A program made the position numbers and the translations under genes. Shown here piece by piece: positions 3,638 through 40,442 of a stretch of DNA of 56,323 nucleotides. Source of the DNA: a virus; the IMG/VR virus record IMGVR_UViG_3300046788_000223, positions 1-56,323 of that record. One strand, 5' to 3'. The notes beneath the pieces are model-generated. The model had not been told where the DNA came from. It worked only from the letters and a program-made list of their open reading frames with translations, and searched no databases. Every line of letters begins with the position of its first letter. Position 1 is the first letter of the stretch.

Positions 3638-4680
3638 TGCTCTTGCGATGTTGGAGATGGTTGCGAGAGAATACTTGCTAGAGTTGCGCCGCCCACTGGA
3701 GCTGCGGCAGCCAACCCATACTTCCTCAGTATCTCTATGATCTCAGGAGACCAGACGACGTAATTGCTTGAACCCTCGCCCTTAGCTCTTGACCCCTGGT
3801 CTAGGTAGCGGATGCCGGGGATGCCGGCTTCACGAAGCGCCTCAACCGCTCCGACGCCAGGGCCTTCTGGATGGTGAGAACTGGCTTTCTCGAATGACTG
3901 ATAGTGCGCTTCTCCAGCATTCTCCGGACGCAGCGGAACTTTGTAACCTGTAACGCCCTGCAATTTTCTATAGGCGTCCTGAAGCTGCGCAGGCTGCCCG
4001 CTCAGCGGCTTATCCCAGTCCAGGAATGACTCTGGTGAGGCGTGAAGGGCGACTTCGTACATCTTGCCGGGCGAAATCTGAGGAAGCTGCTGACCCCGCT
4101 CAAGCGCCGCCGCTGCCGTTCGCAACCTTTGCGCATAGCCTGGATCTGCAAGCCTATTACGCTCGGCTTTCGCGCGGAGCTCCACAATGGCCTTGGCTGG
4201 ATCTCCGCCAACGTCATGCAGCGTTAGAGCGCCCTGATGTCGCCAGTCGTATTCGTCAAACGGCTTTCCCCCTACGATGTTGCCAGCCAGATTGTCGCGA
4301 TAGCCTTTCGCAACTGGCTCATGCTCCGCAAAATACAACCCATGCCCATAGGCTTGGGCTCCTTCTCCGGTGCCGATCTTGGATAGGTCGAAGGCATCGA
4401 AGTCATGGGGAGAGCCGTGATAGGCTTTGATTGGATTGGGAACACGAACTGGAGCGCGCGGCCCAATGAGGCCCGCCAACACATCCATAGCTCCCGAAGG
4501 CAGGCGACTGGCTAAAGGCTCGTTAAAACCTAAGGGACTCTGAATAGGCCCGCCGGGCGCCGACCGAACCTCAGTGTAGTTAGGGTTGACCGTATCCCCT
4601 TCCACGGCCTGCCGGACAGGCGATCGGTAAGTCATCGCCGGATCAAGACCAGCCAGGATCCGCGCCAAATCGTCAGACAT
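3634..4680 (-). CDS. ADP-ribosyltransferase-fold (PARP-like, H-Y-x) protein of the polyvalent-protein type
   Basis: AYHGSPHDFDAF...GEGAQAYGHGLYFAEHEPVAKGY resembles the HGS / GxGxYFA NAD-binding signature. It is followed by MYEVALHASPESFLDWDKPLSGQ. Assignment is by eye only. Confidence 0.45.
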   Translation of the reverse strand: MSDDLARILAGLDPAMTYRSPVRQAVEGDTVNPNYTEVRSAPGGPIQSPLGFNEPLASRLPSGAMDVLAGLIGPRAPVRVPNPIKAYHGSPHDFDAFDLSKIGTGEGAQAYGHGLYFAEHEPVAKGYRDNLAGNIVGGKPFDEYDWRHQGALTLHDVGGDPAKAIVELRAKAERNRLADPGYAQRLRTAAAALERGQQLPQISPGKMYEVALHASPESFLDWDKPLSGQPAQLQDAYRKLQGVTGYKVPLRPENAGEAHYQSFEKASSHHPEGPGVGAVEALREAGIPGIRYLDQGSRAKGEGSSNYVVWSPEIIEILRKYGLAAAAPVGGATLASILSQPSPTSQEQ

Positions 4681-5503
4681 GCTTTCTGCGCCAAAGCCAA
4701 GTTGTAACAGCGCCGAATAAGGCTAGAGCACCGACCCAAACCAGAGGCTCTTGCAAAGCCGCTAAAACGAGCCCTGAGAGGGTGAACTTGCCGCTGGCTG
4801 TATACCTAGCCACGATACCCGGACCGGCCGCCACAAGCCCTCCTGACCCCCCTAGCGTTAATCCTGCTTGGGTGGCGAGGGGAGGGGCTGGGTTTTGGGC
4901 TGGCGCACGGCCTTGGGAGGCTGCTTGGAGGTCCGGATCGGGGTTTGGCTTGGGTAAATCGGCCGGGGGCACAAAGGCGATTATATTGCCAGCCGATGCC
5001 ATGGCGGCGTGCTCGATGCCGTCGCATCGGCTCATCCAGCCTCGGCCGAAATACTGGAACGTGCTCAAGCTGCGTAGGTAGGCGCGGCGAGCATCCATGT
5101 ATTTCGCGATCAGCCCGTGCACATCTCCGGATTGATGAACCGCGTCGATGGTTTGGGTTCCCATGTGGCCATCGGCCACAATGCCTAGGCACTGCTGCAG
5201 CTTGCGAATAGCCGTCACAGGGCCTGAATTTATGCCGAAGTCGTTGGTTGCCAGATCCAGCCCTGGCGGCAATTCATCGGCGCGAACCGGCATCCAGTAG
5301 GAGGAGCGGTAGATATCCCTTAGCTCATCCTCTGAAATGTTGCGCACCGTTTGCGTCTGCAAGCCGCGTTTCCGCCTATAGGCATCATATTCTTTCTGGA
5401 TGATGCCCTTCATGGTCGCCCCACCGGGGTCGTGGGCATCATTAGAAAAATTGCCTTCCCATTTAAGGGTCTCGGCAAGGCAAGCGCTGAAGCGATCCAC
5501 CAC
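4673..5503 (-). CDS. Endolysin: GH108 lysozyme-like domain + PG_binding_3-like domain, with a C-terminal TM anchor
   Basis: TLKWEGNFSNDAHDPGGATMKGI is the GH108 signature. ADGHMGTQTIDAV looks like a peptidoglycan-binding motif. The C-terminus LVWVGALALFGAVTTWLWRRKHV is hydrophobic. Confidence 0.8.
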   Translation of the reverse strand: MVDRFSACLAETLKWEGNFSNDAHDPGGATMKGIIQKEYDAYRRKRGLQTQTVRNISEDELRDIYRSSYWMPVRADELPPGLDLATNDFGINSGPVTAIRKLQQCLGIVADGHMGTQTIDAVHQSGDVHGLIAKYMDARRAYLRSLSTFQYFGRGWMSRCDGIEHAAMASAGNIIAFVPPADLPKPNPDPDLQAASQGRAPAQNPAPPLATQAGLTLGGSGGLVAAGPGIVARYTASGKFTLSGLVLAALQEPLVWVGALALFGAVTTWLWRRKHV

Positions 5504-14999: not shown

Positions 15000-16621
15000 A
15001 TAAACGCTCCGGTCTCATAGAGGGTCATAAACCCGTTGATGCGCATTATTTCGTTGGTTCGGCTAGATGCGCCCCAGGTCGCCGACCCCCACGTGCCTAT
15101 GCCCCATTGGCCAATCGATACGGTCGTGCCGGTCTGGGCTTGAAACTTGACGCTAGCGAAGCGCCCCAACGCCGGACTAGATGTCCAGTCATTGACGTTG
15201 GCGTCAGTAGAGCTCCATTCCGAGCTGTCCCATGTCGAGCTATCCCACGTCGAGCCAGCACCCGTTGCAGACGACGGGCTAGATAGGCTTGAGGTCTCGA
15301 CAAAGTCCGTTGAAATGCCGACAGATGGACGGTTCGGCGAATTCACCGTAATCATCGGCTGAAGCATGGTGAACCGCTTCAGATTTCCAGGCGAGTTGAA
15401 CGCCTGATACGCAGCCTGTCCCGTGCATGTGATCGGCGTAAAGAGGTCTAGCGGCCCAACGTCGGCCTTGTAGACCCGCCCATTGTTGGCGCCGAAGTAG
15501 AGGTTGTTGTTGTAGATCGCCCAGCAGTTGGCGTTGTGGCTGTCGAATTCACACCATGCGCCCGTCACCGTGTTCATGACGTATTGCTTGGCGGCGGCGT
15601 TCTCGGATGTTGGAATGTTGACAACGAGGCGCGTGCCCTGCGGATAGACGATGGGCTGCCAGCCGAAGTTAGATCCGTAGCTAAAGGCCGCTTGGTTGAA
15701 GCTGTTGGCAATGAGGGCCGAAAGGGACTGGAATTTGATCTGCGCTTGGTCAACGCCGCCCAATACCTTGCTCATGGGGATCACGCCATCTAACGTGAGA
15801 ATGAGCAAGTCGGCGCCGAGCTTGGTAAAGCATCGCCGTCCCAGAGGCGTTCCCACATTGAAAACGCCCACGAGATCCCAGGTCGTGGCGCTAGATGGAT
15901 CGGTTCCTTGATAGACGGACAACTGTCCCTGACTCGATATAAAGATCGTAAAGTCGTCAGCGCCGGCGCCACCGTCACGCGTCCAGTTTGCCGTGGCTAC
16001 CAGATACCCGCCACGATCAAACGTCGCACCGACATCAAACTGAGTAGCGGCCCCAGCAATTGCATCAGTTGGCAGATACCAAGCGGAGGTCGTGCCAGAC
16101 TGGACGAACCAAAGACGATGCTTGTGCAGGTTTACGTTGATAAAGTTGGCTGAACTCGCGCCGGTTATGCTGGGCGTGCTCCAGACGGAGCCATTGTAAT
16201 TCCGGACGCTATCAGCGCCATTGCAGATGACGAGGAACGCGCCGGCCGCCGTCGTCATGTTCGTGTATTGCCAACGGGCATTGCTTAGCCCGGTCACGGC
16301 AGACGTAGCAACGGCGTTGCTGCTCACATCGTAGATGGCCGTAGAGGCCGCCGCAAACATCTTCTGCGAGCTCGGCCCGTTCCAGACCATCAGGCTCTCG
16401 ACCGAGGTCGAGGACGTGCCGACTTCCCAGGCCCAATTGTCAAAGCCGTTTCTTGCTTCCCCATATCCTGGCTGGGGAAACCAGTTCTTGAGCTGGACGG
16501 CGCGCTGCGGGTCCATGATCGCAAGCGCCGAGGTCGTGTCCCATCCCTGCACAGGGAACGGAACCGGCGCCGGCTGCGAAACAGCTTGCCGCGTTGTGTT
16601 TGGTATCAGCGCCTGGAGCAT
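14996..16621 (-). CDS. Tail structural protein (nozzle / tubular-B-like by position), beta-rich
   Basis: 541 aa. N-terminus VQGWDTTSALAIMDPQRAVQLKNWFP, then repeated W/F/G-rich beta-type segments. Flanked by fibre and adaptor-like genes. Confidence 0.4.
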   Translation of the reverse strand: MLQALIPNTTRQAVSQPAPVPFPVQGWDTTSALAIMDPQRAVQLKNWFPQPGYGEARNGFDNWAWEVGTSSTSVESLMVWNGPSSQKMFAAASTAIYDVSSNAVATSAVTGLSNARWQYTNMTTAAGAFLVICNGADSVRNYNGSVWSTPSITGASSANFINVNLHKHRLWFVQSGTTSAWYLPTDAIAGAATQFDVGATFDRGGYLVATANWTRDGGAGADDFTIFISSQGQLSVYQGTDPSSATTWDLVGVFNVGTPLGRRCFTKLGADLLILTLDGVIPMSKVLGGVDQAQIKFQSLSALIANSFNQAAFSYGSNFGWQPIVYPQGTRLVVNIPTSENAAAKQYVMNTVTGAWCEFDSHNANCWAIYNNNLYFGANNGRVYKADVGPLDLFTPITCTGQAAYQAFNSPGNLKRFTMLQPMITVNSPNRPSVGISTDFVETSSLSSPSSATGAGSTWDSSTWDSSEWSSTDANVNDWTSSPALGRFASVKFQAQTGTTVSIGQWGIGTWGSATWGASSRTNEIMRINGFMTLYETGAFM

Positions 16622-17649
16622 TAGGACCAGTTGCCCACCGATTGCACTGTATTAGTTCCAACTGGATAGCAGAGGAAGAAGCTATTGACGCCAACGACAG
16701 CAGCGGCTGCGTTCGTCAGTGCGACTGATGGAATGATGGTTCCAGCTGAACTGACTCGGAAGATACCCCAGATATCCACAACGCACCCCGTGTTGACTGC
16801 AGCGCCCACGATGTCCCCAGAGGAGGCATTAGTCGCTGTAAAGCACCCGGATTGTGATCCGGCGGTTCCGGGCGCTGACGTATCCACGCCAACCGAGTGA
16901 AAGGCGGCAGACGTAAAGCTCGCGGTCCCCGCACCAAGCACGTCGAACTTCATATTGCCGCTCGTTGCGGACATGCTCGATAGGTTCAGCTGGCAGTGGA
17001 AGAAGTAGGTTGTTGAGCCGAGAACCGTCAGCGTACCATTAGACGGCGTGTTGAAGACGGCCTGTGTGTTGGTGTTGTTTCCGAGCGTATAAGTGGCAGT
17101 CAGAGAAATGAATTGCATACACGGCAAGACACCACGCTGACTTGCCGCAAAGTCATAGTAAGGGACTTTTCCGTCATATTCCATCGCCCCTGCAGTTGGG
17201 GTCGTAAGATTGGTTCCCGATTGAAACTGCAACGGCGCAACACTTGTTGTACCAGCGACCAGCGTCTGAGTTCCGGTGAATGTGTTGGCTCCAAGGATGG
17301 CCAGAGTTCCGGACGCTGGCAGGGTTAGGCTTGTGGTTCCGCTTACCGTCAACGTTGTCGCGAAGTTGCCGGATATTGTTAGGGTGCTGGCTGCATTGTT
17401 GGCGATTCCTGTTCCGCCGGACGCCGGCCCAAGCACGCTTCCGCCACTGAGAACCAGCGAAGAATCCTTGAGCAATCGGCCCGTGGTTCCGTCCCAAACG
17501 GCAATGGCGTTGTTGGTGCTGCTCCCGCCGCTTGGCCCCACCACCAGCGTATCAAGGAAGGTGTTTAAGCTCTTGGGGTTGCTGGCGTCCCCATTGGGGT
17601 AATGGGTGTAGTTGTTGCTCCGGTTCTGAAGATGTTGCTTGGAGCCCAT
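16621..17649 (-). CDS. Tail fibre / receptor-binding protein (full-length paralogue)
   Basis: Has the N-terminal NAIAVWDGTTGRLLKDS fibre-anchor motif. VAPLQFQSGTNLTTPTAGAMEYDG and the C-terminal VGNWS are shared with ORF 20205-21002. Confidence 0.65.
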   Translation of the reverse strand: MGSKQHLQNRSNNYTHYPNGDASNPKSLNTFLDTLVVGPSGGSSTNNAIAVWDGTTGRLLKDSSLVLSGGSVLGPASGGTGIANNAASTLTISGNFATTLTVSGTTSLTLPASGTLAILGANTFTGTQTLVAGTTSVAPLQFQSGTNLTTPTAGAMEYDGKVPYYDFAASQRGVLPCMQFISLTATYTLGNNTNTQAVFNTPSNGTLTVLGSTTYFFHCQLNLSSMSATSGNMKFDVLGAGTASFTSAAFHSVGVDTSAPGTAGSQSGCFTATNASSGDIVGAAVNTGCVVDIWGIFRVSSAGTIIPSVALTNAAAAVVGVNSFFLCYPVGTNTVQSVGNWS

Positions 17650-18359
17650 TAGCTGATAGACCAGGAACCATCAGGGAACGTGGGCATGCGTGGACGGCGA
17701 TAGTCGTAGGCGCGGCCCATGTTGACGGTACGCTTGCCGCCGTCTCGAGAGGTCGCGAGCATCACGTGCAGCTCATACGTGCGGAAGGCCTCGCTATAGT
17801 CCATTCCCTTGGCCTTGAGGAACCGCCAGCAAACGCCGTCCGTGATCAGTTCTTCGTCCAGCAGAGAAACGTTGTCGTCGGCCGTCCAGGTTGTAAGGCT
17901 GCCAGATGAACCGGCTGCGGTGCGTATCCTGTAGGTTGATACGTACTCAAACCCATAGGTCTGGCCAGCCGCAGGGACTGGCGTAAGCAAGAGCGAATTG
18001 CCCCTGATGCGGAAAGCGTCCCAGACGAGGGTTATTGTCATCGCTTGGAAGCGCTGCCATTCCACGGGATCAAGAGGACCTTCAACCCTTCTGTGCGCAG
18101 TGCGGTTGTGCATCGTCTCGTTTATGTACCGATCGAAATCGGCAGGAATAACTGACGTTTGTTCTTCCTGCGCGATTGAAACAAACGTGGTTTCCTTTAC
18201 AATGGCTTGCCAAGGATGCCGCCGCGCAAGTTCCGTTACCTCCTCCTGGGCCAAGCCCTGGAGTTGGCGCACTTGCTGGTCGGTTGAGCCTATGACCGAC
18301 GAGGGACGAACGATCCCCATTCGGTCACAGGCAGCTTGGACGAGAGTTAGGAGGCTCAC
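17649..18359 (-). CDS. Virion structural protein (adaptor / tubular-A-like by position)
   Basis: 236 aa. GTG start. Start and stop abut the neighbouring genes. No enzymatic motif. Confidence 0.45.
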   Translation of the reverse strand: MSLLTLVQAACDRMGIVRPSSVIGSTDQQVRQLQGLAQEEVTELARRHPWQAIVKETTFVSIAQEEQTSVIPADFDRYINETMHNRTAHRRVEGPLDPVEWQRFQAMTITLVWDAFRIRGNSLLLTPVPAAGQTYGFEYVSTYRIRTAAGSSGSLTTWTADDNVSLLDEELITDGVCWRFLKAKGMDYSEAFRTYELHVMLATSRDGGKRTVNMGRAYDYRRPRMPTFPDGSWSIS

Positions 18360-18360
18360 G

Positions 18361-18561
18361 GTGGCTGGAACCCCGCGCGAACGCGCACAGAAGATTGCGG
18401 ACGATTTCTACGCTAAGATTGAGCAATACGCCCCGCCCTGCGTTCAGGACGAAGACAGGACTTGGCTGGTCGACCGGATCGAGGCTGCAATTAAGGAAGC
18501 GCCAGGCCAGCTAACTAACGAAGAGCTAGCTAGGTGGCAGCACATCAACACTAACTGTTAA
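18361..18561 (+). CDS. Opposite-strand small ORF (66 aa) embedded in the late operon
   Basis: TAGGAGG-N6-GTG. It exactly fills the only 198-nt gap between two minus-strand virion genes. The protein sequence is hydrophilic and looks plausible. Confidence 0.5.
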   Translation: MAGTPRERAQKIADDFYAKIEQYAPPCVQDEDRTWLVDRIEAAIKEAPGQLTNEELARWQHINTNC

Positions 18562-19268
18562 GCTGCCGCCTCTGCCTTAGCCGGACGTCCGCGCTTCCTA
18601 GCTACTGCCGGAACCGCCTCGTCTAGCTCTTTCTCGGCATCTCTTGCGCGCTTGTCGGAGTCAGCTTGAGCCCTGCGAAGCTCCTCAAGCTGCTTCCTCA
18701 GCTCATCAAGTTGGGCTTTGCTCTCATCGAGATCGCGCACGGCGATCGCCACGTCCTTGGTCTCGAGGTATTTCCTGGCGCGCTCGCGATAACGAACCAT
18801 GTTCGGGTTCGGCACTCGGTTTAGGACGTCATCCTTGGCAATCGACAGGTCCTCGACCGTGTAGATACGGAACGGCTTCAAGGCCTCCACGACATCGCGG
18901 GTCACAGCCGGCCAGATCGATAGCGGCATCCCGTTGGTGATGGCGTCGGCCTCGCCGCCAGCCTTCCAATTATCATAGAAGGGTTTGATGGCCCGCCACT
19001 TCGCGGCGTACTCGTCGTCAGGCTCCGTTGCCTTCTTGGCGGCGCGCTCGATCTTATGGATTGGCTCGACAACCGTTGCCGGGATGGTTACGCCCTTCTT
19101 GGCCCAGGTCACATATTCCCTGGCGATGAGCTTGGTCGGATCGTTCGGGTCGGGCAGATATCGAAGGAAGAACGCGATAGGCTGGATGGACGCCGTAGCC
19201 TCCTTGCCGCCTTCCATCGGGATCATCTGCATTGGCATAGGTGCGCCGCCGCCTACCATGGCATTCAT
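18558..19268 (-). CDS. Hypothetical virion-module protein with a C-terminal coiled coil and basic tail
   Basis: 236 aa, coupled to the upstream glycosyltransferase gene by a 4-nt overlap. Confidence 0.55.
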   Translation of the reverse strand: MNAMVGGGAPMPMQMIPMEGGKEATASIQPIAFFLRYLPDPNDPTKLIAREYVTWAKKGVTIPATVVEPIHKIERAAKKATEPDDEYAAKWRAIKPFYDNWKAGGEADAITNGMPLSIWPAVTRDVVEALKPFRIYTVEDLSIAKDDVLNRVPNPNMVRYRERARKYLETKDVAIAVRDLDESKAQLDELRKQLEELRRAQADSDKRARDAEKELDEAVPAVARKRGRPAKAEAAA

Positions 19269-19969
19269 AGAGATTTCTCCGCTCGTTTACGTGCTAGTCG
19301 CTCAGTCAAAGTAAGCTTTGGCGGCTCCGGTTCGTACGTGACCGCGCCGCCAGATCTCCAAGCCAGTTGCGCCCATCGGGCTGCTTCGTGTGGCTTTGGA
19401 TCTCGCGTGAAGTAGATGAGGCGCGCGTCTTTGGGTGGTCCGGCCTCACACTTGTGGAACTTGTACTGGTAGAAGCCGCCGAACTGTCGCTGGAGGCGTA
19501 ATGCCCTGGACTGCGTTATCTTGTCGATCCACTCATCGTCGCCGTTCCCCAGGATCGGCTGGGCGGCTTTTAGCCATTCCGTCCATATGAAGTCGCATTC
19601 GCCCGCCTGCCACGCCATGACCCCCGACGAAAAGATTCGATTACGGCGAGCACAACCGAGACCAGCAAAAGCGCCAGCATAGTTCGCAAGATCGTCAAGG
19701 TTGGCAAGCAGCAGGCTATCAAGATCGAGATATAGAACCCGGCCACGGAAAACGCCTGGGCAAAACAGAAAAAGCTTACACCACCACCCGAAGGCGTTGG
19801 GCTTTGGTATGACTCGGATGTCCGGGGCAAAGCCAAGGGGATTGTCCGTGATGCATGCAAACTCAAACGGCACGGTTATCTGCTTCTTGCAAGCGAGGCG
19901 TAGATTGTTGACGTACTCGGCTTGCCGCTTGCAATAGTTGTTGACCGCAACACAGGCGATCGTCAGCAC
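19265..19969 (-). CDS. Soluble nucleotide-sugar glycosyltransferase-like protein (GT-A/GT8-like), paralogue of 20999-21589
   Basis: WWCKLFLF and YLDLDSLL (D-x-D) motifs. No TM segments. Confidence 0.45.
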   Translation of the reverse strand: MLTIACVAVNNYCKRQAEYVNNLRLACKKQITVPFEFACITDNPLGFAPDIRVIPKPNAFGWWCKLFLFCPGVFRGRVLYLDLDSLLLANLDDLANYAGAFAGLGCARRNRIFSSGVMAWQAGECDFIWTEWLKAAQPILGNGDDEWIDKITQSRALRLQRQFGGFYQYKFHKCEAGPPKDARLIYFTRDPKPHEAARWAQLAWRSGGAVTYEPEPPKLTLTERLARKRAEKSL

Positions 19970-20202
19970 GGCCTCATTTCATCCTGATACTGGTTGGCGC
20001 CGTGGCCGTTGCTATAGGGCGCCGCTTCGAGCTCTTTGATCTTTGCCGCCTGCTCCGCAACCCTGCGCTCTAGCGCCTTGTGGCTAGCAGCCAACCTGAT
20101 CATGTCGTTGTGAGCCGTCCTTAGCAGGCTATCCCGCTGTGCCTCGAGGGCCGACAGCATGTCCTGGGCATTCCTTAACTTCTCTTCATATTCTTGCGTC
20201 AT
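19963..20202 (-). CDS. Small coiled-coil protein
   Basis: 79 aa with heptad-like charged sequence. Overlaps the downstream start. Confidence 0.5.
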   Translation of the reverse strand: MTQEYEEKLRNAQDMLSALEAQRDSLLRTAHNDMIRLAASHKALERRVAEQAAKIKELEAAPYSNGHGANQYQDEMRPC

Positions 20203-20204
20203 AG

Positions 20205-21002
20205 TTACGACCAGTTTCCTACGTTGGTTGCGGTATTAGATCCGATCGGCCACAGCGCTATGTATGAGCCCGCCAGCATTTTCTCGGTGCCGGTTGGCTG
20301 CGCTGATGCCTTGATCTGCGGGATTAGCGTTCCGCCCGCGTTGATGTTGATGCGGCCGGAGATCCTGATCACGACGTTTTCCGTCGCGCTGGTAGAGGCG
20401 GCCGTTACAGCCGTAACCGACGAGATGCCAGCGCCCACGATGTAGATGCTGCTCTTGGCTGTTAGCGCGTTCGATGTCGCTGTGTAGGCATCCACCATTA
20501 ACGCGGTGCCAGCGGCCGTGATCGTCGCCCCACCGGCAAAGAGAATGCCCCAGGTATGCGAGCTTGTGCCCGTGTTAGTCAGATAATATATCGCATCAAC
20601 CATATACCCCGTGCTGCCGGGGAGCGTCACAGCGCCAGCCGCAGTTCCGTTGAATGCCGCTTGTGCCGATGCGCTGTCCGCCAAGGTATAGTCGGCAACC
20701 AGCGACTGATATTGGATGGTATCGATAAGCTGCCGAGTGGATGCAACCGCCGTGGCATAGAAGAGCGTGCCATCGTATTCGATAGCTCCCGCAGCAGCCG
20801 TCGTCAGGTTCGTTCCGCTCGTAAGCACAAGAGGGGCAACCGTGGCGGTTCCAGCCGGCAAGATTGCCCCAGGCGTGCCCGCCGCCAACGCAAGACCTGA
20901 TGCGGATGATGTCTGGGTGCCAATTTTGATGTTGCTGCCATCCTCCTGAACGGCCAACAAGCCCCGCACGATCTCAACGAAGCCTGTCTTCTGGTTGCTC
21001 AT
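20205..21002 (-). CDS. Fibre-like protein lacking the N-terminal anchor (paralogue of 16621-17649)
   Basis: VAPLVLTSGTNLTTAAAGAIEYDG and C-terminal GTLIP...IGSNTATNVGNWS match the 342-aa fibre along about 230 aa. Confidence 0.6.
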   Translation of the reverse strand: MSNQKTGFVEIVRGLLAVQEDGSNIKIGTQTSSASGLALAAGTPGAILPAGTATVAPLVLTSGTNLTTAAAGAIEYDGTLFYATAVASTRQLIDTIQYQSLVADYTLADSASAQAAFNGTAAGAVTLPGSTGYMVDAIYYLTNTGTSSHTWGILFAGGATITAAGTALMVDAYTATSNALTAKSSIYIVGAGISSVTAVTAASTSATENVVIRISGRININAGGTLIPQIKASAQPTGTEKMLAGSYIALWPIGSNTATNVGNWS

Positions 21003-21589
21003 TGCGTCAGTCCTTCACCTGTCCAGTGATTTTGGAACCAGCGGGCCGTGATCTGGTGAGGCCTTGGCGACCCATGGCATATGCACGCAATGGCACCTGG
21101 GGGCGGCTCATCCAGCGTAAAGAGCCGATGGACTTTCCAGCTTGGAAACCATGTTGGAGGGAATGTTGCTGCGCCAGGCATGGCCACGTTTAGCCAGTCT
21201 TGATCGCCTCGCATTGTGGCCATGACGCCGGGCGTGAACCGCGACCAAACGTCCGTTTCCCAGCCAGTCAACTTGATGACGGAGGTATTGTAGCCTTTCA
21301 ACCACGGATTTTTCAGCGTTCCAAAGCCTTGCCATTCCAGCAGCGGCTGCAAACTTCCTAGGATCACGATATCTAGGTCCAGACAGATCAGCGGCTGGCC
21401 CAGCATATAGGCGCCAATTTTACACCACCATTTCGGCAGATCGACCGGCAATGGCCTGCAATCGACGCCGGGAACCGGATCGTTGGTGAAGCAGACCAAG
21501 TCTTGGTCGCTGTGCCGGCGTACGCCGTCTCGCAGTCGCAGGACGTATTCATTCCCGAACTTCGTCCCGGTCTTGAAACAACAGATCAT
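20999..21589 (-). CDS. Soluble nucleotide-sugar glycosyltransferase-like protein (GT-A-like)
   Basis: PKWWCKIGAY, CLDLDIVI (D-x-D) and GDQDWL motifs. No TM segments. Confidence 0.45.
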   Translation of the reverse strand: MICCFKTGTKFGNEYVLRLRDGVRRHSDQDLVCFTNDPVPGVDCRPLPVDLPKWWCKIGAYMLGQPLICLDLDIVILGSLQPLLEWQGFGTLKNPWLKGYNTSVIKLTGWETDVWSRFTPGVMATMRGDQDWLNVAMPGAATFPPTWFPSWKVHRLFTLDEPPPGAIACICHGSPRPHQITARWFQNHWTGEGLTQ

Positions 21590-23316
21590 GCAGCCGTGTG
21601 CAGCATTGGACTACCTGGAGCCACGGCTTTACCGCTAGCCGCCAGCTCCGAATGCATGCGGATCATGCTTTGGAGCAGGCCAGTCCCATAGAGCTGGATA
21701 TCGACCCCAACGCTCATGCGCTGGATCATTTCAACGAATTCCGTCGCATAGCCAATGAGCACGAGGCTTGTGTGGAAGATTTCGCCCTCGACGGTCGCGA
21801 TCTTCACAACCTCCTGGCTCAATCCAGCGTGCTTCCCAGCCCATTGCTCCTTGCCTTCGTCGGCAAAGCTGCAATCCATCCCGTAGATGTGGTACTCGCG
21901 ATAGCCCATGGCATAGAGCAGGGAGATTGCCCGCAGCCCTACCGAGCCGCCGCCCGTGACTATGAGCTTGCCTGGTTCTTTGAGCTCCTGCAGGAACTTG
22001 GCGATGTGCTCATCGGTTGCGATATGCCAGAGGGCAACGTCACCACCCTCCAGCTTATCGAACATCGCTGGATGGCATGCACTCCCGATCAGATATTGCA
22101 CTTCGGAATGCCATGTCCCGATGTTGTCCGCTTTGTGCGCGCGGGGGTCGCATTCGACGTGATACTTTGGGACAATCCCTGAGTAGATCAGGAAATCATG
22201 GCTTCCGGAGACCGAGATAACGTCAGCATCCTCGGCCTGCGCCTGATACCTCAACATCCCGAGATTGTCTTTGATCGATGGCCCATAGCAGGCAAGGATT
22301 GCCTTGCGCTTGTGGGCTGGGCCTACAAGGACACGCTTGGGGATACGGGCACACGCTGCCTTGGCTTGCTCCCAGCGCTCTTCGCTGGGCCTGGCGCCGA
22401 CCATCTTGACGCCTGCGACGCCTACTCTTGGTGTGCCAATGACAACAAGCTTATCCTCGTCAACCTGCCAGTTGCCAATGCGCAGGATGCGCTCAAACAA
22501 TGGTCTCCAATACTCCTCCGTGCGCTCCTCAGTAAGCTGGACGCGGGCTAGGTAGACCTTGCGGGTATAGCGAAGAGCATCGAGGATCTTGGGCTTGGGA
22601 TCTTCCGGGCCATCAAGGATGTCCGCCACTATCTGTAGATCAGCCAACCTGTCGTTGTACCCTTCCCACATGCTGATGCTCTCTATGGAGCTCATCGCAT
22701 CGGAATGCGCCTCCATCTGCACTCTAACCATCTCACAGAAGGCGGAGACTTCCGGCGTCATGCGGCGACGCTTGGATGTGAGCTTGGGCGCTCCCTTGGG
22801 CACCGCTTCGCCATAAACGAAGTGGTTGGAAATGGCCCGGTCGCCCCAAGAGATGATGTCAAATAACCTGGACAGCTTTTCTCGCCACCAGTCCCCCGAC
22901 TCAACGATCAGGTGAGCGTTGCGCCCGTCTGATAGTGTCTTGAAGGCTGGTTGAGTGCAGATATCGAAGAACAGCTTGCGCTTGGTGATGCGAGCCAATT
23001 CGGCCAGCACATTGTCCAGCAACTCAGGTTCGACGTGCTCGAGCACGTCCAGACAGACCACTAGATCGGCCGGTTCAGGCTGCGTGTCTTTGCCAGCGAT
23101 AGCCGGATCGTATTCCGCGACCGAGATCCCTGCCCTTGATAACGTTTTAGCAAGCGTGCCTTTGCCAGATCCATAGTCAAGGATGGTTTCGTGCTTGTCT
23201 TCAATGACGAGTTGTTCGACATAGGCGGCCCATTGCATTCCTTTGGAGCCGAAGCCAGCATAAGCCTCGTGCATCTCGCGGTTTTGCTGCGCGTACGCTT
23301 CCGTTATCAGAGTCAA
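21586..23316 (-). CDS. Fusion protein: class-I SAM methyltransferase + DUF115/MptE-like (Maf-type glycosyltransferase) domain
   Basis: N-terminus has ILDYGSGKG and VVCLDVLEHV. The C-terminal half has ACYGPS, VSGSHDFLIYSGIVPKYHVECDPR and GGSVGLRAISLLYAMGYREYHIYGMDCSF. Confidence 0.55.
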   Translation of the reverse strand: MTLITEAYAQQNREMHEAYAGFGSKGMQWAAYVEQLVIEDKHETILDYGSGKGTLAKTLSRAGISVAEYDPAIAGKDTQPEPADLVVCLDVLEHVEPELLDNVLAELARITKRKLFFDICTQPAFKTLSDGRNAHLIVESGDWWREKLSRLFDIISWGDRAISNHFVYGEAVPKGAPKLTSKRRRMTPEVSAFCEMVRVQMEAHSDAMSSIESISMWEGYNDRLADLQIVADILDGPEDPKPKILDALRYTRKVYLARVQLTEERTEEYWRPLFERILRIGNWQVDEDKLVVIGTPRVGVAGVKMVGARPSEERWEQAKAACARIPKRVLVGPAHKRKAILACYGPSIKDNLGMLRYQAQAEDADVISVSGSHDFLIYSGIVPKYHVECDPRAHKADNIGTWHSEVQYLIGSACHPAMFDKLEGGDVALWHIATDEHIAKFLQELKEPGKLIVTGGGSVGLRAISLLYAMGYREYHIYGMDCSFADEGKEQWAGKHAGLSQEVVKIATVEGEIFHTSLVLIGYATEFVEMIQRMSVGVDIQLYGTGLLQSMIRMHSELAASGKAVAPGSPMLHTAA

Positions 23317-24074
23317 GCATGCACCCCCAGTCCGTTGCGTTTAGGCTCTCGCGGGATCGTTCCTAGGCGGCCATTGAGCCAAGCCCGGCGCTCGGCTAAC
23401 CACTCATCGGCATATGGCGCGTCTTCATAACCGGGGATGTTTGGTGTTCCGTTTGTGAAGTGCACTAATGAAGGGTCACATGATTTGGGCGAATAACCGG
23501 CGAGCCAGTTCCAGGCTTGTGGGAGCGCGCCGATTTCATCATCCTCCAGCCAACAAAAGCGATGAAGATCCCTGCCAGGAACCGTATTGATGAGCTCAAC
23601 GGTCAATCTCCTGTTGGCGGGATGGTCGCAATTGAACAGCATGACTGACGACCAGTTCTTGCGCGCGTAGAGCGTCTGCAATTGGCCGTCCATCTTGACG
23701 CCTTCCGGCGGCACATGGTGATGCTTGACGCACATCACGGCATAGCTTGGATCGGCTAGGTCGAAGAGGTCGTAGAGGTCATTTCTGGCCAGCACGTCGC
23801 AGTCCATGAAGAGCGCCCATCCAGATTTGGCCAGGATTGGCGTCAGGAACCGCGAGATTGCGAACGCGGTGCTCATTGGGGCTTCCGAGATATCATCCCA
23901 GAGCCTTCCGTCTTTGCGAGAGGTTGGCCGGTGATAAAGGCCAGCCTCTCGCATTTCGTCTAGCGCCACAGCGCTGATCGGAATGTTTCCGGATAAGCGC
24001 CGAATTGATTGCCGGCAAACGGCAAACGCTTCGGTCTCTCGTGGATCGTATCCGATGAATACGCTGCGGCGCAT
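23313..24074 (-). CDS. GT8-like glycosyltransferase
   Basis: IGYDPRE...AFAISRFLTP, ALFMDCDVL (D-x-D) and HFTNGTP motifs. Soluble. Confidence 0.55.
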   Translation of the reverse strand: MRRSVFIGYDPRETEAFAVCRQSIRRLSGNIPISAVALDEMREAGLYHRPTSRKDGRLWDDISEAPMSTAFAISRFLTPILAKSGWALFMDCDVLARNDLYDLFDLADPSYAVMCVKHHHVPPEGVKMDGQLQTLYARKNWSSVMLFNCDHPANRRLTVELINTVPGRDLHRFCWLEDDEIGALPQAWNWLAGYSPKSCDPSLVHFTNGTPNIPGYEDAPYADEWLAERRAWLNGRLGTIPREPKRNGLGVHA

Positions 24075-24079
24075 TGTCG

Positions 24080-24589
24080 TTAGGCCTGGCTGATACGTGG
24101 GAAGTTAATGAAACAGGCAGACAGGGTTGCCGTGCTCGCCGTGGCGGTCAGGACAAGGCCGTTGATGTAGAGAGAGGCCGTTCCTGATAGCGCCTTGACC
24201 TCGCCCGGCGTCGAGCCCATGACCAACAGATGGTTGGGCAAGTTCGATGCGGTGAGGTCAGTGACGCGCACGTTTCCTTGACCGAATATTTGGGCAAAGA
24301 AAAACTGACTTGCACTGGCCGTGATCGAGCAAACCGCAACGCCAAGCATGAACATGTTGGCGCCGGCCGGAGTACCCGGACCGGAGACCATGATCGTGGC
24401 GTTGTAGCTTCCGTCCCAGAAGATCACGTTTCCATTGATGATGTTCTGGGATGCGGTTGCCTTCACGCACATGAACACGGCGCCAGTATTGTCCGTCACG
24501 ACCGTGCCGGATTTCATGCCGCGCCCGCGCGTCAGCGCTTCAGTCTCACTGATCACGTCGTTGAGCAGCGCTCCAACGTTACCATGCAT
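24080..24589 (-). CDS. Capsid-adjacent hypothetical protein (decoration-protein candidate by position)
   Basis: 169 aa, rich in Ser/Thr/Ala/Gly/Val. Lies directly after the major capsid gene. Confidence 0.5.
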   Translation of the reverse strand: MHGNVGALLNDVISETEALTRGRGMKSGTVVTDNTGAVFMCVKATASQNIINGNVIFWDGSYNATIMVSGPGTPAGANMFMLGVAVCSITASASQFFFAQIFGQGNVRVTDLTASNLPNHLLVMGSTPGEVKALSGTASLYINGLVLTATASTATLSACFINFPRISQA

Positions 24590-24632: not shown

Positions 24633-25607
24633 TTACGAAGCGTCGAGCAGATAGCCCTGACGAGCGCGGTTGCTGCAGCAGAGCTGGCCCTGCCAGATGA
24701 TCGGGATGAGCACCGCGTCTTGGTTGACGGGCACTTTGTCATCTAGCTGCGTCCAGTTGGCCTGGCGATGCACGCAGAGCTGCAGATAGTCCAGGTTCAA
24801 GAAGAACATCTTCTCGCCGGTTGCCGAGAAGTTGCTGTTGCTGTCGAAGACAACATCAGCGTTGACGTACTTCAGGGCGGGGAATCCGGCCGTGACCTTG
24901 GTTCCCGGCGTGATGTCGTTATATCGGGTGAGGTCTTGCAAGCTCTCCCAATATGCGGCGTAGAAGTCGTTCGTGCTGATGATCAGGTTAGGCGCATCCG
25001 AGCCGCGAACTGTCGACAGATAGATCGCGTTCATGTCGCCCTTGATCGTGCTCTTAGACCAGGTGTTCGTGCCGGTCATCTCGCGGAACTGGTTGCCCCA
25101 GAAGGTATATACCGAGGCGTCAATGCCGCCGACCGTGCCGACACCTGTCGTTGACAGGATCGAGCCAAGGCCGCCCATTTGGTTCGTCAGAGAGCCAGAC
25201 GAGAACAGATCAATCGACATGTTGTTGGCGGCGGTACGCATGGCGTTTTTCACGCGCGCCTTCATCAAGTTGATGAGCTGTTCCTTGCCAGAGTTTTTGC
25301 GGAGCTCGTCGCCCGAAGCAACGACGTGGACAGCTGCCTGTACCCAGTCGTATTTGGCTGCAGTCAGGACGTTGGAGGCGTTCACGTTGAGCTGATCGAA
25401 GCCGGCAAAGCGCTGATAGGTGCTGTTGTTTTGCCAATCCAGCGGGCGAACGATCTCGTAGCCGCCGTCAAGGAGCTCGATCTGGTTTTTGTCCTTGAGG
25501 TAGCGGTAAAGAGCGTTGTGAGCGCTGACGTTGTCGGCAATCTCAGTAGGATGGTTACGGAGGGTCATGGTGACCATTTCCGTAAAGGTGCTGTTGGGGG
25601 ATGCCAT
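24633..25607 (-). CDS. Major capsid protein
   Basis: 324 aa, follows the scaffold-like gene. The sequence pattern (TMTLRNHPTEIADNV...LLDGGYEI..P, QRFAGFDQL) is typical of podovirus HK97-fold capsid proteins. Confidence 0.75.
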   Translation of the reverse strand: MASPNSTFTEMVTMTLRNHPTEIADNVSAHNALYRYLKDKNQIELLDGGYEIVRPLDWQNNSTYQRFAGFDQLNVNASNVLTAAKYDWVQAAVHVVASGDELRKNSGKEQLINLMKARVKNAMRTAANNMSIDLFSSGSLTNQMGGLGSILSTTGVGTVGGIDASVYTFWGNQFREMTGTNTWSKSTIKGDMNAIYLSTVRGSDAPNLIISTNDFYAAYWESLQDLTRYNDITPGTKVTAGFPALKYVNADVVFDSNSNFSATGEKMFFLNLDYLQLCVHRQANWTQLDDKVPVNQDAVLIPIIWQGQLCCSNRARQGYLLDAS

Positions 25608-27779: not shown

Positions 27780-29081
27780 CTACAATGTCTGAATAGCAGT
27801 AGCAACGATGCTCGCAACAATCGCATATCCCGTATCATTGAGATGGGTCTTATCGGCATCGTAATAAGTCGTGTCGTCGCTATCCCCGAAATCCCCGATA
27901 CGATTGTCGGCGGCCACGTCCGCAAGAGCATCAGCGTAGCTTGTATAGTTGGCCCTAATAGAAGTATTTACGGTTTGCCTGTCGGTCTCAAAATTCGCGT
28001 AAAGCCCGCCATTCGATCTCGGTAGGCATGTCACGGCAACTACCTTGTATCCAGCGCTGCGCACATCTGAGCACCAGCTGGAAAAGTCGCTAATCACAGT
28101 CGCAGCGTTCTGAGTATTAGTCAGATCGTTCGTAAGTTCCCACAGAACGGCGACGTTGCGGGAGCGATGTGATCCGTACTTATTTTTAATCTGAACTTGT
28201 GCGTCGGCCGCTCTCTGCGTGGTCGTCTGGCCAGGCACACCAAGATTTGTGTAGTCCCAGCTGCCTGCTAACAATGCAACGCATTGTGTTGGATAATAAA
28301 ACGACGGACCGCTGGCTCCGTTGCCGGCTGTAAGAGAATTGCCGTCGAACTTGATCTGTTGTGTCGCGGAGTAATCGAGGGCGTATTTCCCTCGCAAATA
28401 TTCCGTAACAACTAGATGTTCGGCATCAGTGAGGGTGCGGTTATATGCAAGAACCTCAAGCACCTGTCCATTCCAAGTGAACCCACCAGCGCTAAAATCT
28501 CCAATTGTAAAGGCCCCAGACAGAAGCGTATTGCCGCTAGATGATTGGCTGACCGCCGTATATTGATTAGTGGGATCATAGACGGCCAGCTTTTGTGTCG
28601 AGCCGTCGTAACGGAATGCATGCAGATATCCTGTAGTCGGCATAGTGTTAAGAATGGTTTGGGGCGTAGAAAGGTTAGATTGCGTGGTGATTACTTCGTT
28701 AAGTGAGCCGCAATAAAGTCTATCGGATTGGTTGGAAATCCACACCTGCAGAGCCGCATTTGCTGTCGCAACGACGCCATAGACCGACAGCGAAGTATCG
28801 AAACTGCTATCAAGGAAGCTTGTCGTTACGACCTTGTTGCCAGCTGTTACGAACTCAACCCCGGCTTTTCCGTTAAGAACGCTCGCGCGATACACAGGCG
28901 TCCCGCTTGCGGTGCCGGTGCGGCCGTTCCCGGAGAGGTCTGGCCAAGTCGTGACTGTATCGCCGTCGCTAAGGCCTCTTATGCTATCTCCGGCACACCA
29001 AAAGGCCAGATTTTGAATAGTCAGAGGCAGCGCTCGGCTGTCCTTCCGAGCCAACAACGGTGTTAAGACCTGAGGAATCAC
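27780..29081 (-). CDS. LamG/concanavalin-like domain + SGNH/GDSL-type esterase domain protein
   Basis: N-terminus WPDLSGNGRTGT...VLNGKAGVEF is LamG-like. The C-terminal half has FDGNSLTAG (block I), LWELTNDL (block III) and DKTHLND (block V). Confidence 0.5.
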   Translation of the reverse strand: MIPQVLTPLLARKDSRALPLTIQNLAFWCAGDSIRGLSDGDTVTTWPDLSGNGRTGTASGTPVYRASVLNGKAGVEFVTAGNKVVTTSFLDSSFDTSLSVYGVVATANAALQVWISNQSDRLYCGSLNEVITTQSNLSTPQTILNTMPTTGYLHAFRYDGSTQKLAVYDPTNQYTAVSQSSSGNTLLSGAFTIGDFSAGGFTWNGQVLEVLAYNRTLTDAEHLVVTEYLRGKYALDYSATQQIKFDGNSLTAGNGASGPSFYYPTQCVALLAGSWDYTNLGVPGQTTTQRAADAQVQIKNKYGSHRSRNVAVLWELTNDLTNTQNAATVISDFSSWCSDVRSAGYKVVAVTCLPRSNGGLYANFETDRQTVNTSIRANYTSYADALADVAADNRIGDFGDSDDTTYYDADKTHLNDTGYAIVASIVATAIQTL

Positions 29082-37165: not shown

Positions 37166-37747
37166 TCAGGCCACCGCCAATTGATCCGCCTCCATTGAAA
37201 CCACCCGCATTGATCCGAATAGGTGGAGCATTACATCGATTTTCTTGCGGGCGACGGTGCTGACTTTGGCTGGGAAGCCCATAAATGGCCCGTCGATGAT
37301 TTTGACCTTGGCGCCGGGCTGGAATGGGCTCAGCTGTTTGATGGACTGGCGCCAGCCGGTCTCAGACAGGCTTTTTATGAACTCCGCATCGGTTTCGGTC
37401 AGGACCACAGGCTTAAAATCGGTGCGGGATCGGCTTAGGATGCCTTTGACCCCGTCGATTTGCCTGAGTGTGTAGAACTCCTGGTTGATTTTGCGGGTCT
37501 CGAGCTGAACGAAGACATAGGACGGGTACAGCGGAACCCTTACCTTCTTGGGGTGGCGCTTGCCACGCTGGGGGATTTTCTGCAGTTCGAACGGGACCAG
37601 AGCCGGCCGCTCGCTCTGGCGCAGCATCCGGGCGACCTCAAATTCAATGCCGCGCGCCTCCTCATTCGAATTCGGATTGACGCGCACCTTGACGCGGCGG
37701 GAGGGGTCAGTTCCGAGGATGTACCAGCCATAGACTAGTTCGATCAT
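37166..37747 (-). CDS. NusG/RfaH-family transcription antitermination-like factor
   Basis: NGN-like N-terminus (WYILGT..., PLYPSYVFVQ) and a KOW motif (GAKVKIIDGPFMGFPAKVSTV). Confidence 0.8.
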   Translation of the reverse strand: MIELVYGWYILGTDPSRRVKVRVNPNSNEEARGIEFEVARMLRQSERPALVPFELQKIPQRGKRHPKKVRVPLYPSYVFVQLETRKINQEFYTLRQIDGVKGILSRSRTDFKPVVLTETDAEFIKSLSETGWRQSIKQLSPFQPGAKVKIIDGPFMGFPAKVSTVARKKIDVMLHLFGSMRVVSMEADQLAVA

Positions 37748-40397: not shown

Positions 40398-40442
40398 GTT
40401 GCGTCTCCGCTGTTGAGGTTGAACGCACTTTCGAAGACGCAA

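Follow-up and report, generated by a model that had tools for sequence, protein, structure and literature searches.

Viral record IMGVR_UViG_3300046788_000223 spans 56,323 nucleotides, and this whole stretch is the window of our analysis. Between its capsid and tail genes it carries an island of genes (positions 19265 to 24074) that a sequence-only reading had taken for a soluble glycosyltransferase and methyltransferase system wired into the late operon. The six minus-strand open reading frames (ORFs) described in that reading are present at the coordinates it gave (Table 1) and encode proteins of 253, 576, 196, 265, 79 and 234 amino acids (aa). They are translationally coupled, with overlaps of 4-7 bases: from the 169-aa gene that follows the capsid gene, through the island, to the 236-aa gene beyond it, the spacings at successive junctions are +5, -4, -4, -4, +2, -7 and -4 bases, negative values being overlaps. 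The island is bounded by the capsid block on one side and by the p50-like and tail tubular genes on the other, as had been described.

The ORFs of the island are real genes and not chance reading frames, because more than 7,600 proteins are homologous to the 253-aa protein, with 60-74% identity, and the 576-aa protein has at least 556 full-length homologues and matches 1,430 clusters (50% identity) at E<=1e-30 among 1.84 billion representatives. Four of the encoded proteins are soluble enzymes with transferase or methyltransferase folds, and they are co-transcribed with the head and tail genes. No 19-residue window in any island protein reaches the hydrophobicity typical of a transmembrane segment, in agreement with the earlier observation, and the highest Kyte-Doolittle mean among the enzymes (1.68) falls within a beta-strand that bears a DxD motif. 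Between 14 and 30 kb, sigma-70-like promoters and terminator-like hairpins are no commoner than in shuffled sequence, and the GC and GC3 of the island are those of the remaining genome.

Table 1. Island genes and domains, flanking genes and other features of the window, with sugar-nucleotide genes from related loci
Feature	Position	Strand	Basis or remark
Major capsid protein, 324 aa; upstream flank of the insertion site	24633-25607	-	phrog_9953 major head protein, 1.7e-78
Small post-capsid protein (CEM), 169 aa, S+T 19%	24080-24589	-	immediately follows the capsid gene in almost every relative
GT8-like nucleotide-sugar transferase, 253 aa; best-conserved cassette gene	23313-24074	-	Pfam, phrog_28018, motifs
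576-aa protein, three regions (methyltransferase, middle, MptE-fold)	21586-23316	-
Class-I SAM-dependent methyltransferase domain, residues 1-175	22792-23316	-	Methyltransf_23, phrog_24759, Foldseek
Middle domain, residues 176-330	22327-22791	-	confidently modelled alpha/beta region
MptE-fold, Maf-like transferase domain, residues 331-576; sole universal cassette member	21586-22326	-	PF01973
GT8-fold GT-A glycosyltransferase, 196 aa	20999-21589	-	phrog_1962, AlphaFold2 and Foldseek
Fibre-like protein, 265 aa (S+T 23%, Ala 17%)	20205-21002	-	paralogue of the 342-aa protein
Predicted helical/coiled-coil protein, 79 aa	19963-20202	-	weak coiled-coil-type Pfam matches
phrog_1962-type glycosyltransferase, 234 aa; distant paralogue of the 196-aa protein	19265-19969	-	phrog_1962 1.8e-15, DxD motif YLDLDSLL
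p50-like protein, 236 aa; downstream flank of the insertion site	18558-19268	-	phrog_20268 6.5e-9; directly after CEM in cassette-free relatives
Tail tubular gene	17649-18359		phrog_6013, 1.1e-45
Fibre-like protein, 342 aa; between the tail tubular and 'stabilization' genes	16621-17649	-	paralogue of the 265-aa protein
Integrase	51017-52147		~27 kb from the island
GDP-mannose 4,6-dehydratase genes of four relatives	L031:8231-9445; L033:4695-5651; L034:8319-9416; L123:6264-7235

The window is a complete circular (or terminally redundant) genome of about 56.2 kb (~56,196 bases), since its first 127 bases recur exactly at its end (1-127 = 56197-56323) and since it contains no tRNA genes and no recognisable host genes. 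The same three features rule out a prophage with host flanks. The window also makes up one whole JGI metagenome contig. We assign the genome to the temperate Mx8-like podoviruses because its capsid protein is 35-47% identical to counterparts in Myxococcus phage Mx8, Bradyrhizobium phage ppBjS10J-1 and the uncultured phage MW202489.1, and because a single gene separates the capsid gene from the p50 and tail tubular genes in the relatives inspected (MW202489.1 and ppBjS10J-1). Genes for a temperate lifestyle encode an integrase, an S24 repressor and an ERF recombinase; GcrA, a NusG-like protein and a GH108 endolysin are also present, and the GcrA gene suggests that the host is probably an alphaproteobacterium. 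The late operon runs in the order terminase, portal, SGNH esterase, scaffold, capsid, 169-aa protein, island, p50-like protein, tail tubular protein, 342-aa fibre-like protein and 'stabilization' protein, and its head-tail part has one sizeable intergenic gap, the 198 bases (18360-18557) between the p50-like and tail tubular genes. In a nucleotide search of GenBank phages the sole match was a 183-base methyltransferase stretch in Caulobacter jumbo phages, and the genome therefore has no close cultured relative among them.

Enzyme families of the island proteins

The 576-aa protein had been read as a class-I S-adenosylmethionine (SAM)-dependent methyltransferase fused to an MptE-like (DUF115) domain, and both halves of this assignment held. 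Its N-terminal domain matches Methyltransf_23 (residues 29-112, 9.1e-10) and the phrog_24759 methyltransferase (5e-20), and is 40-43% identical to stand-alone methyltransferases that adjoin GT8-like genes in Caulobacter phages. Its C-terminal domain matches PF01973 (Maf_flag10 / MptE-like) over residues 335-486 with an E-value of 7.5e-19 and 68.6 bits, against a cut-off of 34.6. An AlphaFold model of the protein built from 35 homologues (predicted local distance difference test, pLDDT, 90.3; predicted template modelling score, pTM, 0.85) has as its top PDB match in Foldseek the Maf glycosyltransferase of Magnetospirillum magneticum (5MU5, E 1e-9), followed by the archaeal 6-hydroxymethylpterin pyrophosphokinase (HPPK) MptE (8sd5, 5.6e-6); the N-terminus of the model retrieves many small-molecule and sugar O/C-methyltransferases. 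A PDB search with the single 576-aa sequence was uninformative. A profile of the MptE domain made from 17 diverse phage members again places 5MU5 first (9.5e-13) and 8sd5 second (1.1e-4), with the GT42 sialyltransferases Cst-I and Cst-II matching only at E ~1.

Maf enzymes O-glycosylate Ser and Thr residues on a self-assembling protein in the cytoplasm; their catalytic domain is a modified GT-A fold related to the GT42 sialyltransferases, CMP-Neu5Ac and CMP-Kdo are usable as donors, and Glu324 and Asp415 are both needed for activity (10.1101/2020.06.03.131540). These two residues align with Asp390 (in the motif ECDPR) and Asp481 (in YGMDCSF) of the phage protein, neither of which varies among 35 family members. 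HPPK, too, has acidic residues there, and the pair thus does not discriminate Maf from HPPK. The phage protein also resembles the Maf enzymes of M. magneticum (5MU5), Clostridium botulinum, Geobacillus and Shewanella (Maf-1 and Maf-2) in its GxGPS-type loop, in being a soluble cytoplasmic enzyme, and in being co-expressed with a self-assembling structural protein.

The differences from Maf lie around the catalytic domain. Acceptor specificity of Maf enzymes comes from TPR domains or, in Maf-2 systems, from the small helical partner GlfM. The phage protein, only ~15% identical to Maf, carries a SAM methyltransferase and a novel middle domain (and in its relatives a GT8-like domain, or nothing) in place of the N-terminal and C-terminal acceptor-binding/TPR domains of Maf or a GlfM partner; the middle domain may itself be an acceptor-binding module. 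Nor is the genetic context that of Maf, for the enzyme is encoded in a head-tail operon, its neighbours are capsid and tail genes, and neither the window nor the related loci contain genes for flagellin or for CMP-nonulosonate biosynthesis. Both sequence and fold thus place the MptE-like domain nearer to Maf than to archaeal HPPK, and the domain architecture differs from that of Maf. The proposal that such a domain defines the Maf enzymes went too far, as PF01973 also covers the archaeal pterin pyrophosphokinase and the phage protein has neither the domains that flank it in Maf nor the flagellin and nonulosonate context.

The remaining three enzymes had been described as GT8-type transferases on the strength of their DxD motifs. 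We call them GT8-like, not demonstrated GT8 members, because the 253-aa protein stays below the Pfam Glyco_transf_8 cut-off (E 0.0067, 16.5 bits against 24.3) and the 196-aa and 234-aa proteins have no Pfam match. The description stands best for the 196-aa protein, whose AlphaFold2 model (pLDDT 93.9) has GlyE, LgtC, glycogenin and UGGT as its top Foldseek matches (best E 1.7e-7, TM-score ~0.68); the top 50 are nearly all GT8 enzymes or close GT-A relatives with TM-scores of 0.6-0.7. In its family D71-L-D73 is invariant and H172 nearly so, and a profile search with this family was uninformative. The 253-aa protein, which matches phrog_28018 at 1e-57, belongs to a family with an invariant D91xD93 and an invariant H205 in the C-terminal motif VHFTxGxP, and the only PDB matches of its profile, both weak, are the GT8 enzymes GlyE (5gvv, E 0.01) and WbbM (0.089). 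For the 234-aa protein the assignment comes through paralogy with the 196-aa protein, which had been noticed earlier and is borne out here: the two are matched by phmmer (E ~1e-9) and BLASTP (E 1e-4, 21% identity), share the motif WWCK, and both match phrog_1962 'glycosyltransferase', a family that PHROGs files under 'moron, auxiliary metabolic gene and host takeover'.

With the GT8 enzymes GlyE of S. pneumoniae, glycogenin, LgtC and WbbM the phage proteins share the GT-A fold (seen in the model of the 196-aa protein), the DxD motif and the C-terminal His motif; they are only 13-16% identical to these enzymes and shorter (196-253 aa). The profile and Foldseek searches that the sequence-only reading had called for thus place the enzymes in the MptE/Maf family (576 aa) and among the GT8-like families (196 aa by fold, 253 aa by profile). 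Every motif that it quoted occurs in the translations: FMDCDVL, CLDLDIVI, YLDLDSLL, ILDYGSGKG, VVCLDVLEHV, ACYGPS, VSGSHDFLIYSGIVPKYHVECDPR and GGSVGLRAISLLYAMGYREYHIYGMDCSF.

Insertion site and architecture of the cassette

Searching with a profile of the 576-aa family brought up 62 viral contigs of IMG/VR and three genome records, the latter being a Rhodomicrobium prophage and metagenome-assembled genome (MAG) contigs of Terrimicrobiaceae and Xanthobacteraceae. Where flanks are present, nearly every locus has the gene order capsid, CEM (~150-195 aa; our label for the small post-capsid protein), an optional GT8-like gene, the MptE-like gene, p50-like, tail tubular and stabilization protein, and in nearly every case the MptE-like gene is co-directional with the capsid/CEM and p50/tail tubular genes on either side. 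The survey of synteny that had been suggested for related prophages therefore finds the cassette at the same CEM/p50 junction in nearly every related locus that has flanks. When loci were sampled by capsid protein instead (80 loci, 73 classifiable), the cassette was present in 12 of the 73, and the others run directly from capsid through CEM to p50; the closest cassette-free relatives have 64-67% capsid identity. Among 105 distinct capsid-to-p50 intervals, 55 are empty, 49 contain an MptE-like gene and none has a GT8 gene without one, counts of GT8 genes being underestimates because over-extended MptE ORFs mask some of them (for example in locus L004).

Since most capsid-matched loci are empty and GT8 genes never occur without an MptE-like gene, the cassette is an accessory element with a single fixed insertion site, the junction of the CEM and p50-like genes, and its sole constant member is the MptE-like gene. 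It is a widespread accessory module of uncultured Mx8-like podoviruses, carried by hundreds of uncultured phages, and relatives of the MptE family are also found in MAGs of Verrucomicrobiota and Planctomycetota. The GT8-like and MptE-like genes are the only cassette genes that recur widely; the 79-aa and 234-aa proteins have no homologue as a separate gene in the loci fetched. The closest relatives, L155 (MptE protein 75% identical) and L156 (66%), both retain the 196-aa glycosyltransferase.

The MptE-like domain occurs in several architectures, which we counted with domain-wise profiles. It stands alone in 45 distinct proteins, follows a methyltransferase and one or two middle domains in 23, and follows a middle domain without a methyltransferase in 7. 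A phrog_1962-type glycosyltransferase is fused to it in 4 (loci L128, L138, L152 and L153), and in 2 it precedes the methyltransferase in reverse order (L104:2891-4273 and L116:10511-11893). Some family members have an extra C-terminal FkbM methyltransferase, and very large multi-domain proteins of up to 1,654 aa combine MptE and methyltransferase modules. An iterated profile started from the 196-aa and 234-aa glycosyltransferases reached the MptE family, and the cause was these genuine glycosyltransferase-MptE fusion proteins. The cassettes of four relatives include a GDP-mannose 4,6-dehydratase (E 1e-104 to 1e-122; Table 1), which points to 6-deoxyhexose donors in those phages, and further methyltransferases are found in the cassettes of others. 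Through these fusions and neighbouring genes the MptE-like domain is functionally tied to glycan synthesis and methylation.

Median identities to the window proteins are 60% for GT8, 50% for the methyltransferase and 47% for MptE, as against 36% for the capsid protein, 34% for CEM and 33% for the tail tubular protein. That the enzymes are better conserved than the virion proteins suggests exchange of the cassette or strong constraint upon it.

Counterparts exist in cultured phages. In Caulobacter phage CcrColossus (NC_019406.1, 98832-103385) gp126, gp129, gp130 and gp131 lie directly after the tail genes, with the lysis cassette next. The first of these is annotated as an alpha-2,3-sialyltransferase and matches Pfam MptE-like just under the cut-off (1.5e-7); gp129 is GT8-like and 39% identical to the GT8-like protein of the window, gp130 is a methyltransferase 40% identical to the N-terminal domain of the 576-aa protein, and gp131 is GT9-like. 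The MptE counterpart gp126 was found by profile because tblastn of the 576-aa protein against 50,697 phage genomes matched the methyltransferase domain only, with no match to the MptE domain at E<=1e-5; an hhalign comparison of the 576-aa family with gp126 alone was not significant (probability 2.4%). The analogous trio is present in the cultured Caulobacter phages CcrColossus, CcrBL9, CcrSC and CcrPW and in Bertelyvirus isolates, and the pair of GT8-like and methyltransferase genes in 15 phiCbK-like and Bertelyvirus records. The prophage of Rhodomicrobium sp. R_RK_3 (MWLK01000033.1, about 42-64 kb) carries the minimal cassette. In Pelagibacter phage Mosig, GT8-like and phrog_1962 glycosyltransferases are clustered with methyltransferases and a sulfotransferase.

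The unrelated podovirus MW202512.1 (L003, 5952-9385) has in its head-tail interval a 525-aa TPR protein, an endonuclease, a methyltransferase and a GT8-like gene. Its TPR protein is reminiscent of the acceptor-binding TPR domains in Maf-1 and FlmG, two flagellin glycosyltransferases.

The sequence-only reading had suggested that a Maf-type enzyme in a podovirus structural operon was unreported. We found no relevant paper on DUF115, MptE or Maf in phages or on the glycosyltransferases of CcrColossus, in keeping with that suggestion; the genes themselves form a widespread module with a phiCbK-like counterpart, BFVD contains MptE-like proteins of 'uncultured Caudovirales phage', and UniProt viral entries are already auto-annotated 'MptE-like'. 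Phage-encoded virion glycosylation is a known type of system, in mycobacteriophages and chloroviruses. We could find no earlier description of a mobile late-operon cassette built around a Maf-like enzyme in podoviruses that infect Gram-negative bacteria.

Candidate acceptors and proposed function of the cassette

That the cassette builds a glycan is, in our judgement, highly probable. We put at about even chances that this glycan is attached to a virion protein. Three considerations favour such an acceptor: the place of the cassette among the head-tail genes and its timing; the nature of the characterised MptE-like relatives, which are cytoplasmic Ser/Thr O-glycosyltransferases of a self-assembling protein; and the precedent of capsid and tail-tube glycosylation in mycobacteriophages. 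The reading as a whole, a late-expressed accessory cassette with which a temperate Mx8-like podovirus decorates a virion protein with a short methylated glycan, is in our estimate evenly balanced between right and wrong.

On this reading, the MptE-fold domain of the 576-aa protein would attach a sugar from a host-supplied activated donor to Ser or Thr of a phage structural protein while virions are assembled in the cytoplasm. If Maf is a guide, this donor would be CMP-Kdo or the CMP-linked form of a nonulosonic acid; the former is available in all Gram-negative hosts, and CMP-nonulosonates in some. The GT8-type enzymes (253, 196 and 234 aa) would then add hexoses from host UDP-sugars, and the fused SAM methyltransferase would cap the glycan by O-methylation. 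The reverse order, with the MptE-like enzyme acting last as a 'sialyltransferase', is equally possible. Because some cassettes contain MptE alone, we infer that the MptE-like enzyme can do without partners and transfers a sugar straight to the acceptor from a donor that the host supplies; the identities of donor and acceptor and the sequence of the steps are likewise proposals. The acceptor would be at the capsid surface, as the Ser/Thr-rich post-capsid protein, the capsid protein or both, and in this phage the 265-aa protein is a second candidate.

Comparative data favour CEM over a fibre protein as the general acceptor, a lead that is phylogenetically confounded. The Ser/Thr fraction of CEM is 0.203 in cassette-bearing phages and 0.176 in cassette-free ones (p 9e-6, in a test that ignores shared ancestry), and neither the capsid protein nor p50 has a higher Ser/Thr content in cassette-bearing phages. 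In the window the Ser/Thr-rich, C-proximal strand of CEM is LVLTATASTATLSAC, and the strand aligned to it has 5.2 Ser/Thr residues in phages with the cassette and 3.5 in the others (p 3e-8, again ignoring shared ancestry). The cassette occurs only with a Ser/Thr-rich CEM subtype (37 against 0 in the B/C subtypes, Fisher p 1e-9, shared ancestry likewise ignored; 6 against 0, p 0.009, in the capsid-sampled subset). CEM is kept in this phage lineage with or without the cassette. Its match to Phage_cement_2 is sub-threshold (E 0.0048), and no PDB or Pfam support for its identity was found beyond this single weak cement-protein match. On these sequence comparisons CEM is the foremost candidate acceptor, if an unlikely one when taken by itself.

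The capsid protein is another possible acceptor. Its C-termini show no difference between cassette-bearing and cassette-free phages, and a C-terminal capsid site of the mycobacteriophage type is thus unsupported. Within the island, the 265-aa fibre-like protein is 35% identical to the 342-aa fibre-like protein over 236 aa (E 8e-29); both are rich in Ala, Ser and Thr and both end in VGNWS. Its homologue at the same place in L156 is 85% identical, above every neighbouring gene. Being absent from most cassettes, it cannot serve as the acceptor in general; it may be cargo of the insertion site or an alternative acceptor. By analogy with GlfM of Maf-2 systems one may speculate that the 79-aa helical protein is a specificity factor, and equally that it, the middle domain and the TPR protein of MW202512.1 are all specificity elements.

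Several observations weigh against a virion-protein acceptor. Enzymes that are better conserved than the structural proteins are unlike what tight co-evolution of an enzyme with its protein acceptor would give, and fit exchange of the cassette or a conserved non-protein acceptor. The association of CEM with the cassette is confounded by shared ancestry, and a surface or decoration role for CEM is a guess from gene position. No nucleotide-sugar pathway is encoded in the window, and the cassette is dispensable for this type of virion, 55 of the 105 distinct capsid-to-p50 intervals being without it. The MptE fold also includes a pyrophosphokinase, and lipopolysaccharide (LPS), too, is built by cytoplasmic GT8 enzymes.

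The last of these points leads to the main rival, in which the cassette acts on glycans of the host envelope (LPS core or O-antigen, capsule or exopolysaccharide) and remodels them, perhaps to mask receptors, block superinfection or keep progeny from adsorbing to debris. We consider it unlikely, but a serious possibility. The LPS-acting GT8 enzymes LgtC, WaaJ/WaaO and WbbM are among the best structural and profile matches, the category in which PHROGs files phrog_1962 fits host takeover, and the GDP-mannose dehydratase and FkbM-type methyltransferases of relatives are typical of O-antigen. The accessory nature of the cassette and the conservation of its enzymes above that of the virion proteins fit here as well, and homologues in cyanophages and Pelagibacter phages lie in clusters read by their authors as serving cell-surface modification. 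Set against this are the fixed site within the late head-tail operon, the translational coupling and the absence of a predicted promoter of its own. The island encodes no flippase, no Gtr-like or other membrane protein and no transmembrane segment; the integrase is ~27 kb distant; and expression late, at lysis, would leave little time for exporting a modified polymer. The characterised relatives of the one universal member, moreover, are protein O-glycosyltransferases. The narrower case of a Gtr-type seroconversion cassette is rejected, as the GtrA, GtrB and Gtr(type) membrane proteins were not found in this late-operon island, which has no transmembrane segments and lies 27 kb from the integrase.

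A further alternative, which we hold improbable, makes the MptE-like domain a (pyro)phosphokinase or some other nucleotide-dependent enzyme with a sugar or small molecule as its substrate, and a metabolite the product of the cassette. PF01973 takes its name from archaeal HPPK, and this enzyme is second to Maf both by fold (5.6e-6) and by profile (1.1e-4) and has the conserved acidic residues; Maf is nonetheless the better match by eight orders of magnitude in the profile comparison, no folate or pterin genes are nearby, and glycosyltransferase domains, sugar-type methyltransferases and GDP-mannose dehydratase recur beside the domain or in one polypeptide with it.

Slightly less probable again is late glycosylation of a host protein filament, a flagellin or pilin, by the Maf-like enzyme. 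The closest characterised relative is a flagellin glycosyltransferase, and hosts of the related phages include flagellated Alphaproteobacteria, as indicated by GcrA in the window and by the Rhodomicrobium prophage. The phage protein, however, has a methyltransferase and a middle domain in place of the flanking N- and C-terminal domains of Maf, including the TPR or GlfM-type elements that give flagellin specificity; its relatives extend to MAGs of Verrucomicrobiota and Planctomycetota, and its timing and position are those of virion genes.

Glycosylation and methylation of the phage DNA as a base hypermodification against restriction is very improbable: phage GT-A enzymes resembling GT8 LPS transferases do glycosylate 5-hydroxymethylcytosine in DNA (10.1101/2023.12.21.572611), and the methyltransferase domain weakly matches a dnd-associated methyltransferase in NCBIfam (E 6e-4, far below the cut-off), but the phage is temperate, with repressor, integrase and ERF recombinase, the cassette stands among structural and not replication genes, and the partner genes that such a system requires (5mYOX/TET, C5-methyltransferase, hydroxymethylase, DNA polymerase, nucleotide metabolism) were not detected in the window ORFs scanned, of which four early ones (187-353 aa) and several short ones are unannotated.

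The earlier contrast with Gtr cassettes and DNA-hypermodification modules, drawn from the late-operon position far from the integrase, thus survives, with neither membrane proteins nor DNA-modification partners detected. Gtr systems are membrane proteins encoded next to int/att and expressed from the prophage, and DNA glucosylation modules accompany base-hydroxymethylating or -oxidising enzymes and replication genes. Like the island they provide phage-encoded sugar transferases; neither gene context is found around it.

For decoration of a virion protein, the nearest precedents are viral. In mycobacteriophages, phage-encoded glycosylation of capsid and tail-tube subunits is established, with glycans located at the subunit C-termini by mass spectrometry, according to the summary of Freeman et al. 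2023 (Cell Host Microbe 31:1216) in PMC12619734. The cassette resembles the systems of Che8, Corndog and Myrna in that cytoplasmic glycosyltransferases from the phage genome are believed to modify capsid or tail proteins of the same phage, and in that the trait is an accessory one, which only some members of a phage group possess. Those systems differ in using other enzyme families, in actinobacterial hosts, and in siphoviruses or myoviruses; glycans have been seen there, whereas the present cassette is known from its genes. We know of no Maf- or MptE-like enzyme reported in mycobacteriophage virion glycosylation. Chlorovirus PBCV-1 has a methylated capsid glycan, a virus-encoded GDP-mannose 4,6-dehydratase and, in A064R, a protein of two glycosyltransferase domains and a methyltransferase. 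The joining of glycosyltransferase and methyltransferase in one protein and the GDP-mannose 4,6-dehydratase (here in relatives L031, L033, L034 and L123) are shared features; PBCV-1 differs in being a giant virus of eukaryotes with N-linked glycans, sequence-unrelated glycosyltransferase domains and no MptE-like domain.

More tentatively, and at somewhat less than even chances, the cassette may be the founding example of a large and hitherto unrecognised phage family of Maf-like protein O-glycosyltransferases (at least 1,400 clusters at 50% identity) that, with the help of GT8-like enzymes and methyltransferases, coat the capsids of podoviruses and Caulobacter phiCbK-like phages of Gram-negative bacteria with short methylated glycans, possibly capped with a sialic-acid-like sugar or Kdo. 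If so, no earlier system for glycosylating capsids would be known from phages with Gram-negative hosts, and the cassette would be a modular, horizontally exchanged 'virion coat', which might conceal capsid proteins from immune systems that sense them or adjust how stable and adhesive the virion is. To our knowledge, virion glycosylation in phages has been demonstrated only in a few mycobacteriophages, where it affects virion recognition. If phages of Gram-negative bacteria had another enzymatic route, unrelated to that one and much more widespread, this would alter how capsid surfaces are read in cryo-EM maps, in proteomics, in capsid sensing by host defences and in phage engineering. Such a route would also extend the Maf/sialyltransferase-like fold from flagella to viruses, and would offer glyco-engineering compact, soluble and modular protein-glycosylating enzymes in the form of glycosyltransferase-methyltransferase and glycosyltransferase-glycosyltransferase fusions. 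The hypothesis can be tested in cultured carriers, namely the Caulobacter phages and the Rhodomicrobium sp. R_RK_3 prophage.

Other genes of the genome

Between the portal and scaffold genes the late operon encodes a 433-aa protein (27780-29081, minus strand) with a C-terminal SGNH/GDSL esterase domain (Lipase_GDSL_2, 3.9e-13). No homologue of it was seen in related loci, and it may be a virion-associated deacetylase or a receptor-modifying enzyme. Elsewhere, a protein with an ART-PolyVal ADP-ribosyltransferase domain (2.1e-7) adjoins the GH108 endolysin, which has a peptidoglycan-binding domain (3634-4680 and 4673-5503, both minus strand). The early and lysogeny region, on the same strand, contains genes for the NusG/KOW-like protein (37166-37747), the GcrA-family cell-cycle regulator (44537-45220) and an outer-membrane beta-barrel protein (39771-40442), the last of which is possibly a moron.

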